Source of the DNA: Vermamoeba vermiformis | Lineage: Eukaryota | Direction of reading: 5' to 3' | Assembly (NCBI GenBank): GCA_045837725.1 | Contig: JBEWZL010000102.1 | Span: 1 to 64,000 of the forward strand | Length of the DNA stretch: 64,000 bases | In this document: positions 1 through 26,816 of the stretch, piece by piece | How positions within the stretch are numbered: position 1 is the first letter of the stretch | Layout: every line of letters starts with the position of its first letter | Translations under genes and position numbers: made by a program | The notes under the pieces: generated by a model | Databases searched by the model: none | Told to the model about the DNA's origin: nothing | What the model saw: only the letters and a program-made list of their open reading frames with translations

Positions 1-71
1 GCCCTAAAAGGCTATATAATGGGGTTTTTTTACTTGCCCTAAGACCCCTAAGCCCTAAAAGGCTATATAAT
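1..71 (+). repeat. 20-bp direct repeat with degenerate CCCTAA (telomere-like) units
   Basis: GCCCTAAAAGGCTATATAAT at 1-20 and 52-71; CCCTAA at 2-7, 37-42, 46-51 and 53-58. Confidence 0.7.
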
Positions 72-314
72 CCCAAATGTATAGGGATTTTTCTCCCTGA
101 TTGGCACCCAATCGGGATGTTTTCAAATTTTGACCAAAGCCATTAACTTTTTTCTGCGTTTTTCATGAAATTTACAGGCTTTTTATTTTTTAACGTTTTT
201 GCCGGAAAATACAAGTTTTTAAATATTGCCCTTTTTCCACAAAAACACCTATTCCTATAGTATTAAATGCATAGTTTCAAATCTTTTCTCGGCTTCATTG
301 TGATAACATATGCA

Positions 315-851
315 CTAGGGTTTGAAGATGAGGTGGTTAGGGTTCAGACAGTCTGGGTTGTGGCAGAGGTGACTAAGATCCAGGCTCTCCTGGCGCACTC
401 CTGGATAAAGCAAGAAGTTACCAAACTCATTACGAGCATGTAAGTGCTCATGATGATATAAATATGAGCTAATGAAAGTTGAGTACATACTGAACTGCCA
501 TCCACAAGTTTGACATTGAAGTAGACGCACCAGTAATTGCCATTCTTGACCTTTTGCTTGGGTCTAAAGACAGGGAATATGCACTCATTGTGAGTGCTTG
601 GGATTGTAATGGGACTGAATCAGTTAAACTGAATCATAAAAACTTTTTGTAATGAATTAACTGACTTACCCTCCTTGAACTTCCTGGAAAAAACTTGAGG
701 TACTGATGAAGAAGATAGTCATCAGTATAGACTCCAATGGGGTGGTGCATCTTCCTTTGCAGCCCCAGTGAAGGCAGGTAGTGTCCTGGGCTGGCTTGTT
801 GACCCACAGAGCAATTGTCACAACAGAAACAGGAAACAGGAAAACAAACAT
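315..851 (-). CDS. His-Cys box (His-Me finger, zinc-binding loop) homing-endonuclease-like protein; probably spliced, possibly truncated
   Basis: ORF 315..530 contains LSHLCHNPDCLNPNHL, the I-PpoI-type SHLCHNxxCxNPxHL signature. Upstream exons join in frame through a GTAAGT..CAG intron and a GTATGT..GAG intron (..EVQGG|PITIPSTHNECIFPVFRPKQKVKNGNYWCVYFNVKLVDGSS|HLHAR..). The stop comes soon after the motif. Confidence 0.6.
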
Positions 852-1022
852 TGATTGTATTTAATATGAGATTAAATTGGTTTATTTTCCCTGTTGAATA
901 ATAGTTATAGTTAATGATTTGTCCCATAGCTGTTACAGATGGGACTAAATCTCCATAATAATCTTCCACCTGTTCATCGAATGAGTTCACTCTTTCTTGT
1001 TGTAATGTAATTGAATGATGTG

Positions 1023-1379
1023 ATGGAATCACAAAATCTTGTGTTGTACCAAGGGAGGTTCCACTGGCAGCCTGCTGATTTTGCACCAAGTCTTCCTTGC
1101 TGTAAGCTATCTCTCATGAGAGATAGTCCTAAGAGAGTCAAGTATTCAAAGCAAAGGCACTATTATTGGCCAACCCGACAATTGAAAACTGTCAATCCAG
1201 TGACAATTTATGACATCTGTCCTCATGTTGAACCACTAACAGAGGAAGAGAGAATTTATCACAAACTGGCCCAACAATCTGCACAAAAAATTGGATTCTG
1301 GACCAATGGTCAGAGCAATAAAAAGCAGATTTCAGAAGCTGTTGAAATGAGTAAGAATTTTTTACTTGAACAAATGTAA
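1023..1379 (+). CDS. hypothetical protein in the CpG-depleted block
   Basis: Open frame of ~118 aa from the first ATG, divergent from the endonuclease gene; no recognisable motif. Confidence 0.3.
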   Translation: MESQNLVLYQGRFHWQPADFAPSLPCCKLSLMRDSPKRVKYSKQRHYYWPTRQLKTVNPVTIYDICPHVEPLTEEERIYHKLAQQSAQKIGFWTNGQSNKKQISEAVEMSKNFLLEQM

Positions 1380-1388
1380 TTTACAATA

Positions 1389-4300
1389 TTATACAATTTG
1401 ACTACTCAATCTTCGTGATGACCTTGGACTGTTGCTTATGAAACTAATTATTTGGTATGAATTGATTTCTGGTTCTTGAGGTGTGTTTGTTATCATCAAC
1501 CGGCTATTTTCCTTGATGATCTTCTTGTACATTTTTTCTTTCTTGAGATCACTCTGTCTGCGAACATGTTTCATCGTTTCCCGCGAGACAGCGGTGGGAA
1601 TCTCGTAAATCTCACATCGACCCATAGCCACATCACGGAGGAATTTTGACGCCTTAATTGACGGTGTCAGTACTCATCATACCAAATAATTAGCAGGAAC
1701 ATACCTGTTCGCCAGTCTCATCAATTAGTCGTGAGAAGTTGCCGCGCTTGATTAACAGCTCTTTGGGCGAATCAAATTCAACAATCTTGCCTTTGTCCAT
1801 GACCATGATTTTAGTCGAATCAATGATCGTGTACAACCGATGAGCAACCGTCAACACAGTGCAGTTGCCAAAACATTGTCGAATCGTCTGTTGCACCAGT
1901 TTGTCGGTTTCAATATCCATAGCCGCAGTCGCCTGTAAACAATTTATTAGGGTAAAGAACTATTATGTTAACCTGCGTTACGTACCTCGTCCAACACTAA
2001 AATCTTCGGTTTTCGTACAATTGCACGAGCAATACATATTAATTGACGTTGACCAACGCTGAAGTTATCGCCGTTCTCTTTGACGAGAGCATTCAACTTT
2101 TCGGGAAGATCTTGCACCGTCTTTTTCATTTGAACCTGAAGTCGGTGAGCAACGCAATTTTTTAAATTAAAGCATGTTTCACTTACTCTCTCGAGAGCAT
2201 CCCATATTTCACGATCAGTGTATTGATCGAACGGATCCAAGTTGAATCTGATCGTGCCCGTGAACAAGACAGGTTCTTGCGGAATAATTGCCAATCTCGA
2301 TCGCAAGTCATCGAGTCCAATCTCCGTGATGTCCACGCCATCAATAATAATGCTGCCACTCGTAGGCTCCATAATGCGGAACAACGTCATGCCTAAAGTT
2401 GACTTGCCAGCGCCTGTACGGCCCACAATACCAATCTTCTCTTTGGTCTTAACGGAGAAGTTGATGTTGTTTAAAGCAGCTGGTCCCGAGGACTTGTACT
2501 TCACCTCGACCTGGATGTTTTCGTTAACTAATGTAACTGGTGCACGACCGAGACTTACACCACGATAGGTAATATTTCCCTCAGTTGGCCAGTCTTTAGG
2601 CGGTCTGTTCTCTTCGATGATTCGAGGTGCCTCGCTGTTGAGAGTGCGCGTGTAATGGACCAAGCGCTCCACACTCGTCATCAAACTTTCGGTCTCTGCT
2701 GTCATTCGAACTGTTGCTGGCGGTTAGATTCATTCATTCTTTATACTGAGCGAGTATACTCACCGCTCCATTGGAAGACCTGCGACAATTGCAATGCATA
2801 TGATAAGGCCAAACCAGCAGCACTCGGAGTGATTTGATCTTGGAGCACGAGAATGAACACACCAGTGAGTGCCACGACAAAGGTGCTCATAACATCGAGG
2901 CGATAAGCCAACCATCTTGAAGCCATTTCAAACGCGAACAAGAATCGGTGATTGTTGTTGATGCGCTGAACTTCAATGCCTTCGAAACGATCGACAGCTT
3001 GAAATGCGCGAATAATGTGAAGACCTTGAAGTGTTGCCGACAAGTGCTCGACAATAGGCGATCTTGTGATGCTGTCCATTCGTTTCAACTCGCGAGAACT
3101 GCGTCGGTAATACGCCTGTGGCTTGTTAGCACGGCGTTCCAAATCCAACTGAAGTACTTACGCCAATGAACCAGAATAGAACGCCGAAGGGGACCAGACA
3201 GATGGTAAACCAAGGCAGCAAGACAGCGATCAGAATGAGAGTGCTCAACACGATGAGATTGTACTGCAGTGCTTGGAGGAGTGCGTCAGGCAGAAGATCA
3301 TCGACCTGATCTTGATCCTTCGAGAATCGGTTCAATATTCTGCCAGTCGGCGTTGAATCGAAGAAGCTGACTGGAGCACGCAATACTTTCTCGAACACAC
3401 CATTGTGCAGTTTTGTCGAAGCACCAATCGTGAAGTACGCAAACAATATGGCACGTGTCACGGTGACGACGATGAATCCCAACAAAATAGCGCCCATTAT
3501 AACTCCGAACCAATACAACGTACGCAGTTCAGCGATTGGATTTGATATCCAGTACGACAGATACCAATCTGAGGGTCGTTAGAGGAGACTAATAAATTGA
3601 GAGTAGTCTCTTACCATTAATCACACGAGCTGCCTGCACGATAATGAAGTAGATCAACAGCATGGCGCACAACCCGGCATTGCCAGCCTTGGCATAATCG
3701 CTAAATAGACGCGCACTCACACTGCAATACATCAGTTACTGGCTTTGTGCATTATAATTACACGTACCCTCCAAGCTGTCGCTCTTCGGTGGTCATTCGT
3801 TTGCCGAGTGCCATCAATTCTTTCGGATCCTTAGTCTCTAAATCACGAAAGACTTGACGGCTCAACACGTAATTGATGTGTTGCATTTGCGGTCGACGCT
3901 GTAACTTTGATTGTTTTCGTGGTGACATTTTCACACCTTCTAGCTTGCCTTCTTTGGTCTGGGCCTCTTCTGAAATGCTCTTAATATGATCGTTGACCAT
4001 CTGAGCAAAGTCCGAGCACGTGTACAAGAGATCATCGTACGTTCCAACAGCCTGTTATTGGTAATGAGTAATCGCAGCGAGAAAAACTTGTCATTCGACT
4101 AACCTGAATTTCACCGTTCTTCATGTAGACGATGCGATCACAGCGCGGCAAGAATTGAATCTGATTGTTGACGAAGACAATCGCCTTGTTGCGCAAATAA
4201 CCGCGGAACAAGTTCTCAAACAACTCGCGACCAACTTGCGAATCGACAGCGCTGAGCGGATCATCGAGCAGGTAGATATCTACAAGCAACATTAGCCAAA

Positions 4301-7010
4301 TTAGCATTACTAGGACTCTAGTTTTACCTGAATTGGCATAGACTGCACGAGCCAATGCGAATCTTTGTCGCTGACCGCCACTGAGACTGACACCCTTTTC
4401 ACCGACTTCTGTTTGATCCAGTGCGGGGAATCCTGCCAAATCGGGCAACAGTTGACAGAGCTCGAGAACGCGCAAGTAGCGTTCTTTCTCGTACGGCAGT
4501 CCGAACAAAATGTTGTTTTTGATCGTGTCGCTCATGAGCCACGACTGCTGACTGACGTACGCAGTTGTACCCTTGACCTTCACCGAGCCCTCCATCAACT
4601 TCATTTGGCCGAGCATAGCTTGCAATAAGCTCGTCTTGCCCGCACCAACACCGCCAACTACGGCCACAATCTCGCCAGCTCTGACTTTCAGATCGATCTT
4701 GCGCAAGGCCCCAGCTTGTTTGTTCATTTCAGCTACTGACATCACTTTGACTCGAGAGTTTCGAAACTTTGTGGCCAACATTGGAATGGCTCCGTGCCAG
4801 TTAAATCTGCCCTTGATCGTGATTGACTTCTTGGGGTTGTCTACCACAATCTGTCGATAGTCGGGTTGTTCTTGCTGTCTCAAAAACGAGTGCAGTCTAC
4901 CGAGTGCAATCTTCGATTCTAAATTTAACAAATGTGAATTGTGGATCCGGGTCTCAAAATCTTTTGATATTCCGCAATTGTTTTGCCGAAGATCTTACCT
5001 GCATAAGCTTTGATGCTGAGTGGCAAAGTGCTCAATGGATATCGTGCCACGTTGTAAAGACTCAGCACGGTAAATGCTACTGAAGCGGTCAGCTCTTGGT
5101 TGAGAGCAATCATGGTGAGAAATGTCACGAATGACACGAGCGCAGGGCCCACTAAAGACACGCTCTGGTTCAGTGACTTGATCATGCCAATAAAGCGGAG
5201 ACCTTCAACTTCTTCGTCGCGGATGTCGGTCACCTGGTTAACATTGCAATGTCAGCAAATCGGGATATCTTCCGAACCACGAGTTTTCGTCAAATAATTA
5301 TTCGAACAAAGAAAACTACTTACTCTGTCTGCGAAGCTTTGCTCCCAACAATACAATTTGACAACGCGAATTGCATTCAAAATTTCGCTCATTAACCGAA
5401 CTCGCTGATCCGTAACTTTGACAGTGGCTGCTCTTTGTGCGGAAATCTTCCTCGCGCTGACCATTTGAATTGGAAATAGCAATATTAATGCCGCAAATCC
5501 GACGGAGGCAGGAATAATTCCAATCTCAAATATCACCAATAAATACACGCCTAAAATTAAATTAAATAATTAAATTCGGTAAATCCCGAGTTTTACAAAA
5601 TTAAATTGATATAATTAATTCTTCGTACCTATGCATAATACTGGCGTTGCCCAAAAGAAGTGGAAAAATCGGAAGTACTCTGCGATGCGGTAACTGTCGT
5701 TGGCTTGCAAATTCAAAATTTCGCCCATCGTTGAGTCAACAGTGCCAACTCTAATAGCTTTACGATAAATCATCATCATCATGCCGGCTCGCATCTACAA
5801 TACGACGTATAAGTACAGCATTTTTAAGATTGCACAAATTTATCGAACACAAACTTACTCTAATACCGATCCGCACTGTCAAATAGAAGTGATAATGCAC
5901 GAAGGTGACTTGCAGTAGTGATTGCAAAAATAGGCCGATGACGTACAGCCAGCCTTCGTACACGGGCTTGGTGTCACGATTTTGAATAAATAATACGAGT
6001 TGTTTCAATAAATAGGCGGGTCCAAACAGCGCTAGACCACAATATAATAACATAAATAGGGCTGAGATTACGGTATCTGTGCGGCTCGCTCTGAAAAATG
6101 GAGCGAAAAAGGATTTCCTAAATAGGAAAAACGGAGATTAGGTTGGTTAATATTTAATTAAATTGTGATACTTGGAAAGGAGTAAAAGTAATCTGTTATA
6201 TCACGAATTAAAGCGATGCAAGTTTTCATTAATGTTGCGGACTCAGTTCCGAAACAGGATATTCTAATTCACTTGTGACGCGTGTTCCAAAAGGATCCAG
6301 TCCCAAATCATTGTGTCTCGTCACATAACACGGTAATTCTTTATGTTATCAATTTTGACGGCATAATAATTTGCTCTCATAAAATTGTGCATGCCGACAT
6401 CAAAATTTAATTAATTAAAAGATTTGCCGCTTCGATAAGTGACTCATACGAAACAAATACGTACTTTTTCTTGTCGGGGTGCATTTCTTTATCCCACTCG
6501 CGTTGCAATTTCGAAGCATTCTGTTCCGTATCTTCCTTTATGGGCAAATTCCACACATCCGCAGCCTGAAATTGAATTCCTAATTAATATCGCAATATTA
6601 AAGTATATGTGCAAGTAAGGCATTATAGTTTGAGGAAGGTTACCGTCAAGATTGCTGGATTGACGGTTATCGAATTTGAGACCGATTAATTATCATTAAC
6701 TTACGGACAACGGCCGCTTGTAACCTTTAGCCAGAATGCTACCAGCCCACCAATATGTGAATATTGAAAAAATATTCTTTTTGTTGTCAATCGGAGAAGG
6801 ACCGCCAGGCGCATCTAAATCCACCTCGACAAACCGATCTTGCCATTTCTTCTTTTTCTTCTTGCCTGAGTCCTTTTCCTCTTCTTCGCTGATAAGATAG
6901 GCCGCTGATACGTCTGTTGCTGTGAGACTGTCCTCGATCGCAGTCGATATAACTTCAGAGTTAGATCCCTCCAAACCAACCGTTGATCCGGCACTCGAAT
7001 TATCATCCAT
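1389..7010 (-). CDS. ABCC/MRP-family full ABC transporter (TMD1-NBD1-TMD2-NBD2), multi-exon
   Basis: NBD1 has [17 protein letters not shown] and [15 protein letters not shown]2 has [20 protein letters not shown]2 has [23 protein letters not shown] and ILVLDE. GT-AG introns lie between the ORF fragments. Confidence 0.93.
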
Positions 7011-8421: not shown

Positions 8422-11346
8422 ATGAGCTCGGTAACTTGGCGTTGGTGAGTATACACTAGATTGATTTAAATGAATGCATGTCACCAATTATGACGTACTG
8501 ATTCGCTCAATTATTTTTTTTACTTAAGCAATTGCAAGGCTAATTTTTATTGCGGAGTGACGATTGAGCAGACCTGCTTATTTGTCGGATGCCCATTAAT
8601 TACTTCACAATCTTTTTTTCAACTGCTGCTATTGATAAGTTGATGCTATTCTCCATATAACTAACTGTTTTATTTGACTAGCATTTTATTTTTTGTTTGT
8701 ATTGGGATGGTGCAACACCAGATCCGCGCTGTTTTATACGCGCCCAATCTCTCAGTGCCCCGTCATACATTAGCTGTTGCTGCATTACCTGGCTACATCG
8801 TATTTGCAGGAGGTACCACTACCCCAGATTCATCGGACGCGGTTGCAACGGTCGACATCTACGACACAGTTTCGGGAAAAAATTTTACGAGCAATTTATC
8901 GGCACCGAGGCGTCAACTAGCCGGTGCAGCATACGGCACCAAAGTTTACTTTGCCGGAGGAATCTCCGATAGTGGCCCCTCGGATGTCGTGGACATTTTT
9001 GACGTTACTTTGCAAAGTTGGACTACGGCACATCTTTCTCAAGCTAGATATCTTCTGCAAGCAGCTACCGTGGCCAACAAAATAATATTTGTGGGCGGAA
9101 GGATCAATTCTTCATTGGCCTCGGATGTGGTCGACATCTACGATCCGATCAACAACATCTGGAGCGCAACAAGCCTTCTTGTTCCAAGATACAGTTTTGG
9201 CATTGCTGGTTCCAGCACGTACGGGCTAATTGTCGGTGGTTACGTGCAAATCGGCTCTGCCATTACGACGCCTGCCTGGATCGAGCGCTTCAATCCTGTT
9301 ACGAATCAGATGGAACAATTTGACCTCAACTATCCTTCCGGCCTCGTCGCTATAGGTAGTGCTCAAACCAACTCGCCCGAAGAGTTGATGTTATTCGCCG
9401 GTGGCTATAATGGCGCGATTTCCCCGCTGTTGGAGCTCTTTTACCCTAACGGCACTTTCTACGGCAACGCGACCATGATCACCCCTCGCATTCTTCCGAC
9501 TCCAGTGTGTTTTCCTGGCACGTGCTACATTGCCGGTGGTGCGGACACTGGCTTCATCGACAAGCTAAACGCGAGCAGTATAACGCTCAGCCTGGCCAAG
9601 ACGGACTACATCAGATACTATGGCAGCGGTGCCTTTGATGGCAACGACACAGTCGCAGTGGGTGGAGGCTTCAACAGCAATGGTCTCATCAGCGCAATCG
9701 AAGTAACGCGCATGCAAAGGATACCGTACAAGCCGTACAATGTGGTCATTCAACCATACACCGCACTTGTCCCGTTCATTTACTGGGACGCTAACATTGC
9801 CTTCACTACCAACTTCACCGTCGAAAGATGGGTCAGCAGCGATCCTCAATGGCGCCACTTGGAAACGATGTCGGCGCAGTACTATTTCACTTTCGATGCT
9901 GGCTTGGAATACAACACCACATACCGCTACAGAGTGGTCGCTATTTCTGACACGGGCATTTCTGCAACCTCCAACGAGTACGCTGAATTTGTTACCCCGA
10001 ACATCCCTGTGCCTCCGACACCCACTGCCATTCAAGCTATTGTTTCGTCGAACAACACTATTGTCATTTCATGGACCCTTGGTGCAGTTAACAAAGACGA
10101 AGCGAACATGACATTTGTTATTATCGAGAGAACAGTTGACTTGGCTGAGAATTTCACCGAAATTGGCCGTGTCTTGGCCCCCACGTCTACATTCACCGAT
10201 GAACAAGATCTTCAAGTCAACGTCACGTATTATTACCGCGCCTATGCTCAAGCCACGTTCCGCTCGGAATACTCTAATGTTGTTTCAGCTACTTTGTCGC
10301 CACCACCAGAAATTCCGCCAGCAGACCCTGGTCAGATTGTTGGTCCAACACCACCCGACGTAGCACAAATAGTCCCCGGAGTTATCATTCCCATTGTTGT
10401 GGTCGCCGTTGCCATCATTGTCTTGCTCGTGCTGCTTCGTCGAGGCAAGCTCCGCAAAGTCAGTTTCTTCGCCAAACTGGAATACTTGGTGTTCTCAAAC
10501 AAGACTTTGTCGCTCAACATTGACCTCGCAAACACCGCGATTGCTGAACGCCTTCACATTCCGTATGCAGAACTGACCATGATCAAACAAATTGGCATGG
10601 GAAGCTACGGAGAAGTGTATCTCGGAGTTTGGAAACAAAGTCACGTGGCCATCAAATTCTGCAAACGATCATTGGACATTGACGAGTTCCTTCGCGAAGC
10701 TGAAGTCATGTTGGCCATCAGACCTCATCCGAACATTGTGCAAGTCCTCGGTGTCAGCACTGATGGACCACAGATTGCCCTCGTGCTCGAGTTCTGTCAA
10801 GGAGGCAGTTTGGACACTCTGTTGTTCGACAAAGAAGACGAAATCAGCCCCGCCCAAAGAATCAAACTCGCTGCAGGCATTGCAGCAGGCATTTATCACC
10901 TGCACCAGAGCAACATTGTGCATAGAGATTTGGCATCGCGCAACGTGTTGTTGACAGGTGACAATCAGCCCAAGATTGCCGACTTTGGCATGTCAAGATT
11001 GCTTCAAACGGACAAAGACACTGGCGCTACGAAGTCAGACACGGGACCAATTCGATGGATGGCTCCGGAATCTTTGCGCGACAAGAGTTACAGCACCAAG
11101 TCAGACGTGTGGAGTTACGGCATTATTTTGTACGAGTTGGTTTCAAGACAAGAGCCGCACGTCAGCGAAGATCCATTGCAAGTCGGAGCCAAGATTCGTG
11201 ATCAAGGCTATACTCCCACGATCCCCGCTGACTGTCCGCACGTGTTGAAAGAAATTATGGAGAGTTGTTGGCGCTTCGAGCAAGCAGATCGACCCGACTT
11301 TGCTGAGATCTGCAACAAATTGAATGCTGCTGCTGCTACTTTGTAA
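8422..11346 (+). CDS. Receptor tyrosine kinase(-like): signal peptide, Kelch repeats, 2x FN3, TM, kinase
   Basis: Micro-exon MSSVTWR(TG) at 8422-8444 and intron 8445-8681 (GTGAGT..CTAAC..TAG) join the 890-aa ORF in frame. Kelch repeats (FAGG..VDIYD), FN3 (YRYRVVA, YYYRAYA), TM IIPIVVVAVAIIVLLVLL, and kinase motifs GMGSYG, HRDLASRN, DFG, PIRWMAPE. Confidence 0.92.

Positions 11347-20783: not shown

Positions 20784-26816
<6,033 letters not shown>

Follow-up and report, generated by a model that had tools for sequence, protein, structure and literature searches.

Probable decayed fragment of a free-standing I-PpoI-like His-Cys box endonuclease gene in a eukaryotic genomic window

Does a short peptide rich in cysteine and histidine (SHLCHNPDCLNPNHL), encoded at nt 374–330 of the minus strand, mark a working homing-type endonuclease gene or the remains of one? 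The peptide lies within an 82-codon stop-to-stop frame (563–318) that is closed by a TAG at 317–315, close to one edge of the stretch of DNA that was analyzed as a whole (64 kb, hereafter the window). The initial annotation had read this locus as a free-standing His-Cys box endonuclease gene with spliceosomal introns, possibly the nuclease of a mobile or subtelomeric element. According to passages of PMC9548176, His-Cys box genes are classically found in group I introns of the rDNA, and some of them contain small spliceosomal introns. The features of the locus and of its surroundings are compiled in Table 1.

Table 1 Features of the endonuclease locus and of the neighbouring genes (positions refer to the window)
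Feature	Position	Strand	Basis
Region downstream of the stop, without trace of the C-terminal third	1..314	.	C-terminal profile of 19 relatives; repeat and hexamer counts
Premature TAG stop, six codons past the last conserved His	315..317	-	Sequence; alignment with relatives
His-Cys box (I-PpoI-like, PF05551) domain remnant	318..488	-	57 codons in one frame, MYSTF... to ...HLIFKP; profile of 11 relatives and Pfam
Reported motif, with catalytic-type His and Cys/Cys/His	330..374	-	Invariant columns, I-PpoI alignment
"Intron 2", former domain coding sequence	401..490 (90 nt from GTATGT; 95 nt from 495)	-	Family profile and Pfam
Possible N-terminal remnant ...NECIFPVFRPKQKVKNGNYW...	521..589	-	Weak resemblance: blastp/phmmer with P0006, codon score
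Candidate spliceosomal intron 1, 106 nt, GTAAGT...TTTAG	564..669	-	Sequence context and frame arithmetic
"Divergent ORF", 118 codons plus stop	1023..1379	+	Without gene evidence; no family match
ABC-C type transporter	~1390 to ~6100	-	Pfam
Kelch repeats and Tyr/Ser-Thr-type protein kinase, single 893-codon open frame	8665-11343	+	Pfam
DUF7025, AAA and "fungal AAA+ lid" gene	12.9-14.8 kb		Pfam
Second ABC transporter gene	~24660-26540	+	Pfam ABC_membrane and ABC_tran
CDC14/SIN component; KN homeobox	Within the window		Pfam

Comparison with Pfam assigned the 82-aa frame to PF05551 (zf-His_Me_endon) with 31.3 bits and an E-value of 2.7e-7, above the gathering score of 27 bits, and thereby confirmed the family that had been proposed from the motif. 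Residues 34–81 align to positions 35–85 of the 131 positions of this model; the match is partial (nt 464–321) and leaves the last third of the model uncovered. No HNH_3 match of the frame was obtained in Pfam at E ≤ 1. Using a profile of 11 relatives, the six-frame translation of the 64 kb (all filters off, stops read as X) yielded a single match at nt 488–315, which covers positions 21–78 of 156 with 61.9 bits and an E-value of 1.9e-20. I-PpoI, the structural type of the His-Cys box homing endonucleases, was found in the PDB at E = 0.022 with the 82-aa frame alone, aligned through the box, and at E = 2.7e-10 with the profile of alignment A1, which comprises the window frame and 13 relatives. 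Five of the six PDB sequences found by this profile at E ≤ 1 are I-PpoI variants, and the alignment spans the box together with the N..RN.C stretch. PF05551 is matched by all 14 sequences of alignment A1, and the columns S64, H65, C67, H68, C72 and H77 are invariant in 14/14 sequences and align to the I-PpoI box. The conserved box of the window copy includes a His aligned to the catalytic His of I-PpoI (H98), plus Cys, Cys and His. Judged by its sequence, the fragment at 318–488 clearly belongs to the PF05551, I-PpoI-like His-Cys box family.

Structural models were considered for the fragment and for one of its relatives. The AlphaFold model of the 82-aa frame is unstructured and unusable, and its low confidence (pLDDT 52.5) is the reason why it was not taken into a fold search. 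The model of the relative P0019 (pLDDT 71.8, core blocks 77–92) has I-PpoI as its top four PDB matches, which are weak (E 0.05–0.30, TM 0.20–0.25) and show 19–25% sequence identity in the fold alignments; at E ≤ 0.001, this model gave no fold match in the PDB.

How widespread is the family? A search of 1.84 billion representative proteins returned 67 matches at E ≤ 1e-3, two of them at E ≤ 1e-10 and none at E ≤ 1e-30 (best 1.8e-12). The nearest relatives among these representatives are 40–49% identical over ~50–58 aa, the same box pattern is present in 24 of the 67 matches, and the clusters of relatives hold 1–3 members each. The 11 matches that were aligned are small proteins of 112–233 aa, which have the box and the helix region before it in common with the window copy and continue past the box with E-P-x3-N-x2-R-N-x-C, followed in most of them by a further Cys/His cluster. 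Thirty further matches were scanned with Pfam: HNH_3 (phage/bacterial type, often in tandem) is the best family in 25 of them, the remaining 5/30 belong to PF05551 and have two or three domains of this kind, and PF05551 is touched in all 30. This split by Pfam type covers the 11 aligned and the 30 scanned of the 67 matches. In word-index homologue searches, the 82-aa frame gave no match in the "longer" or "near" length class, and alignment A2 gave 14 proteins, all PF05551 or unannotated and none of them close. In the Atlas, the fragment is positioned near phage HNH_3 clusters and also near one PF05551 cluster of 82 members, which is 67% eukaryotic with Ascomycota as the most common group. As far as these searches reach, the window copy does not appear to be a conserved host gene.

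The box pattern was also sought in 185,579 bacterial and archaeal genomes, where 11 pattern matches were obtained; of these, a single 16-aa stretch from a Vibrio MAG also passed tblastn. This match was treated as chance because there is no other sign of the family at that place; no listed ORF of at least 40 aa there resembles the PF05551 family.

Two further features were noted among the relatives. The small free-standing proteins P0017, P0019 and P0070 have at their end a basic tail with an RGRP core, which we take to resemble an AT-hook. Moreover, P0011, P0012, P0034, P0039, P0054 and P0066 contain two or three box-containing I-PpoI-like repeats per chain, and PF05551 matches 2–3 stretches in each of the four multi-repeat relatives that were scanned with Pfam. 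Since I-PpoI functions as a homodimer (as stated in part of PMC3384342), such multi-repeat chains could act as single-chain pseudo-dimers reading asymmetric sites.

In the alignment, the window frame stops six codons beyond the last conserved His, while the relatives go on with a near-invariant N..R..C. Its counterpart in I-PpoI is the stretch that contains the metal-binding Asn, and further Cys/His positions follow in most relatives. The metal-binding Asn at the helix start (I-PpoI type) is missing from the window copy, whose frame ends before this column. As for the two structural zinc sites of an I-PpoI-type subunit, the Cys/Cys/His of the box are present, whereas the C-terminal Cys/His cluster of most relatives is missing. 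With stops read as X, none of the six frames of the 64 kb matched positions 79–110 of the profile of 11 relatives. A C-terminal profile of 27–42 residues from 19 relatives was searched against 2651 ORF pieces, of which 2059 were reported; the pieces from nt 1–314 rank 188th or lower among these 2059, with E-values of at least 73. Reading through the TAG restores nothing, because the six-frame and the C-terminal profile searches find the missing third nowhere in the window; with the stop read as X there is no further homology, and the next stop follows after only 19 codons. An "RN.C"-like string in another frame (~nt 262–236) was considered as a displaced remnant and is regarded as chance because of its rank (466th of the 2059 reported) and its E-value of 180. 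By alignment and profile search, it is firmly established that the domain is truncated and that the window does not contain the missing part. The decay that had been suspected from the early TAG is thus supported: the stop is real, the segment with the metal-binding Asn and the C-terminal Cys/His are gone from the window, and a Glu has been replaced by Lys.

This replacement concerns a position at which at least 90% of the aligned sequences carry Glu. Further irregularities are found towards the N-terminus. The sole ATG of the box frame, at 488–486, lies inside the domain. A segment that reads C-x-F-P...N-G-x-Y-W and resembles the N-termini of relatives sits in another frame, in which no ATG occurs between the frame start at nt 619 and a point past the inferred shift. 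Comparison of this possible N-terminal remnant with the N-terminus of P0006 by blastp gave a non-significant match of 20 aa with 35% identity (E = 0.37, 82 proteins searched). Using P0006 as a phmmer query, the segment ranks 3rd of 2651 pieces with a non-significant E-value of 5 and is collinear with the main match. Its frame reaches a codon score of +0.206 per codon, over 24 codons only, and the 82-codon frame scores -0.065 per codon at nt 489–563, which is largely the same DNA. The domain remnant scores 0.03 per codon, compared to 0.09–0.19 for the six supported genes listed. If the N-terminal resemblance is real, a frameshift would follow, because the gap of 38 nt is not divisible by three; candidate intron 1 would then consist of former coding sequence at its 3' end, and the ancestral frame would be without an ATG. 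The position of both segments is suggestive of such a shift between ~nt 520 and 483. A 22-nt GT...AG segment that bridges both frames was also considered and is too short for a spliceosomal intron.

We consider it probable that nt 315 to ~589 of the minus strand are a non-functional remnant, a pseudogene fragment, of a nuclear and free-standing gene that encoded an I-PpoI-like endonuclease of the His-Cys box (beta-beta-alpha-metal) type. Three points are inferred here, namely that a frameshift occurred, that the fragment is a pseudogene, and that the family is of selfish or mobile origin. As described in passages of PMC3384342, the box His of I-PpoI activates water, the Asn at the start of the next helix binds the catalytic metal, and each subunit holds two zinc ions. 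The ancestral protein can be pictured as a small nuclease of ~110–230 aa, stabilised by zinc, whose His would activate water and whose Asn, at the beginning of the next helix, would bind the catalytic metal. The copy in the window has retained the His and the Cys/Cys/His, with the TAG preceding the metal-binding Asn and the following Cys/His; it furthermore has Lys in place of the near-invariant Glu, a probable N-terminal frameshift and an ancestral frame that seems to be without a start codon. As predicted from its reading frame, the window copy cannot cut DNA as encoded, and neither site-specific double-strand cleavage nor homing is to be expected from it. Because the DNA-cutting part is lost, the locus would be a minor curiosity rather than a working mobile element.

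One alternative is that the fragment is a live, shortened gene. An exon starting with the ATG at 750 would be joined, by removal of the candidate intron at 669–564, to the 82-codon frame, and the resulting 109 codons would encode a non-catalytic DNA-binding or regulatory protein that has kept the first zinc box. This join is in frame and uses a consensus GTAAGT donor and a TAG acceptor, and since the resulting 109 codons form an open frame that includes an ATG, a truncated protein might be expressed. In addition, inactive derivatives of the I-PpoI fold exist (mentioned in part of PMC3384342), and the SMAD MH1 domains are inactive relatives of I-PpoI. However, neither exon 1 (-0.008) nor, in this frame, the 5' part of exon 2 (-0.065) has a gene-like codon score, the upstream exon is present in no relative, and the word-index searches gave no close homologue of the short form. 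Furthermore, the product would end inside the beta-beta-alpha unit, before the helix, and the AlphaFold model of its 82 aa is unstructured (pLDDT 52.5). Candidate intron 1 has good splice signals, but at the 3' end it runs into the possible N-terminal remnant, and this end may itself be former coding sequence. Overall, we regard an expressed short form as unlikely.

A second alternative would be an intact but split gene, whose C-terminal third lies beyond position 1 of the window, past a long intron or an element that fills nt 1–314. There are only 314 nt between the stop and the window edge, and this region is unlike the rest of the locus owing to an exact repeat of 20 nt and to hexamers of telomere-like sequence; moreover, a weak GTGCAT donor overlaps the stop. 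Against this stands that the readable introns of the window are short (~53 nt in the ABC gene, 106 nt for the candidate described here), that GTGCAT is a poor donor, and that the copy bears other signs of decay, namely the E to K change and the frame problem. Altogether, we judge a functional gene continuing across the window edge to be quite improbable.

Less likely still is the gene model proposed initially, in which a two-intron homing-endonuclease gene at 851–315 encodes the nuclease of a mobile or subtelomeric element and has the ORF at 1023–1379 as its partner. Its three exons (851–670, 563–496 and 400–315) do join into one open frame, and His-Cys box genes of rDNA introns with small spliceosomal introns are known (according to part of PMC9548176). 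However, this in-frame join requires a poor GTTCAG donor and is uninformative. A better GTATGT donor at 490 delimits a 90-nt segment, and the frame is open with or without its removal; because this segment is stop-free and in frame, the argument from in-frame splicing carries no information. The second intron (490/495–401) had to be rejected, since both the family profile and the independent Pfam model match inside it. The 29 residues encoded within the proposed intron score 15.3 bits on their own (E = 0.0018 at Z = 2651 ORF pieces) at profile positions 24–49, directly preceding positions 52–76 of the motif, with which they are collinear and in frame, and the Pfam match at nt 464–321 spans the same segment. 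The intron is, in other words, homologous coding sequence. Under any model, the product would be without the metal-binding Asn and the following Cys/His segment.

The proposed partnership with the ORF at 1023–1379 fared no better. This ORF has no relatives in Pfam or NCBIfam at E ≤ 0.1 and no usable Atlas match, its codon score of 0.006 per codon is neutral compared to 0.09–0.19 for the six supported genes listed, and nothing connects it with the nuclease. Within the overlapping open frames upstream of the nuclease remnant, a perfect 20-nt palindrome is found at 1107–1126. With respect to a surrounding element, nt 1–1400 have no second copy in the 64-kb window at the DNA or the translated level and contain no convincing terminal inverted repeats or tandem arrays; ends of an element were not found either. 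At the window edge, a 20-nt exact direct repeat is located at 1–20 and 52–71, and four CCCTAA hexamers, two of them inside the repeat, are clustered in nt 2–58, which could be counted in favor of a subtelomeric setting; the 20-mer has no further copy in the window with up to 3 mismatches. Nt 1–71 are telomere-like, not a telomere array, and this is too little to call the region subtelomeric. Taken together, we consider the two-intron mobile-element gene very unlikely. Finally, the idea of a chance Cys/His-rich motif in non-coding DNA, which has its short length as the only point in its favor, is refuted by the family profile match over 58 positions (E = 1.9e-20), the pass of the PF05551 gathering score and the 67 matches at E ≤ 1e-3, and its probability is negligible.

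The earlier statement that no rDNA or group I intron context is visible agrees with the Rfam scan: no rRNA gene or group I intron was detected in the window, the only matches at the gathering score in 64 kb being two U6 genes, and nt 1–3000 gave no Rfam match at E ≤ 1. The window copy does not lie inside a nuclear rDNA group I intron, and no tRNA genes were found in the window. The two U6 snRNA genes (45700–45803 and 46556–46659, minus strand) score 114.6 bits each and are identical over 104 nt; they are part of a duplicated block of ~193 nt with 91.7% identity. According to Pfam matches on long open frames, the window is eukaryotic and the neighbouring genes look fungal. The remnant is located on an apparently fungal chromosome, ~0.5–1 kb downstream of the ABC-C transporter gene. 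The window holds two ABC transporter genes (~1390–6100 on the minus and ~24660–26540 on the plus strand), each of them with ABC_membrane and ABC_tran. At the 3' end of the ABC-C gene, a perfect 17-nt inverted repeat (1444–1460/1677–1693) brackets 250 nt, with one arm within the apparent last intron of this gene. This may be a small inverted-repeat (MITE-like) insertion, from which the C-terminal tail frame at 1392–1673, unusual in its length, would have arisen.

On its own, the fragment has little meaning, since it is probably dead. It points, however, to an almost unstudied group, namely I-PpoI-like genes outside rDNA introns in eukaryotic nuclear genomes. The table of a 2017 His-Me finger classification, as far as contained in the searched part of PMC5714182, marks 62 eukaryotic sequences of the I-PpoI group as "Fungi", and a text search of that part returned no section headed "Group 12". 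In the passages retrieved by a literature text search for zf-His_Me_endon and PF05551, the family is merely listed, and among the matches listed for His-Cys box together with free-standing, none deals with nuclear free-standing members, as judged by title and beginning of the abstract. The free-standing PF05551 family is catalogued, uncharacterised and sparse, and the window copy belongs to it as a decayed member. Should intact members prove active and mobile, they would represent free-standing homing-type nucleases in nuclear chromosomes, which, if true, would be of relevance for mobile-DNA biology and as compact nuclease scaffolds. A more far-reaching interpretation is that the small free-standing PF05551 proteins form a hitherto undescribed class of selfish nuclease genes that are nuclear and non-intronic and occur in fungi and protists. 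As relatives of the rDNA His-Cys box homing endonucleases, they would invade ordinary chromosomal sites, some of them with an AT-hook-like tail and some with two or three domains, and the window would show one such invasion in late decay beside an ABC transporter gene. We offer this interpretation as a speculation and hold it to be rather doubtful.

Among the known systems, the phage and bacterial HNH_3/I-HmuI-type endonucleases (PF13392) have the short H-x-C-x-N-x2-C-x-N-P-x-H-L core in common with the window copy. However, the nearest relatives of the latter carry the I-PpoI-type C-terminal Cys/His segment, and the PDB profile search found I-PpoI only, not I-HmuI. The His-Cys box genes of myxomycete rDNA group I introns (I-DsqI and relatives) provide the precedent for spliceosomal introns in the family, and a spliceosomal intron of 47 nt was shown in vivo in a His-Cys box homing-endonuclease gene (reported in part of PMC9548176). 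In contrast to the window, where there is no rDNA, "intron 2" is derived from coding sequence and intron 1 is a candidate only, the I-DsqI-type genes are located inside rDNA group I introns and encode active nucleases. The window copy can be aligned residue by residue with I-PpoI of Physarum polycephalum (rDNA intron 3) over the box S-H-L-C-H-N-x2-C-x-N-P-x-H-L, and full-length relatives of the window copy also have the E...N..RN.C stretch that follows in I-PpoI. I-PpoI resides in an rDNA group I intron, whereas the window copy resides in neither rDNA nor a group I intron and ends before the metal-binding Asn and the later Cys/His; the N-terminal DNA-binding part of I-PpoI is not alignable. 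The nearest relatives are the free-standing eukaryotic "hypothetical proteins" of 112–233 aa (among them P0002, P0003, P0005, P0006 and P0019), which match PF05551 only. Unlike the window copy, the free-standing PF05551 proteins are complete through N..R..C, most of them (not P0002 or P0006) with further Cys/His, and the RGRP (AT-hook-like) tail is present in three, namely P0017, P0019 and the cluster member P0070. What proteins of the P0002, P0003, P0005, P0006 and P0019 type have in common with the window copy is the box and the helix region before it.
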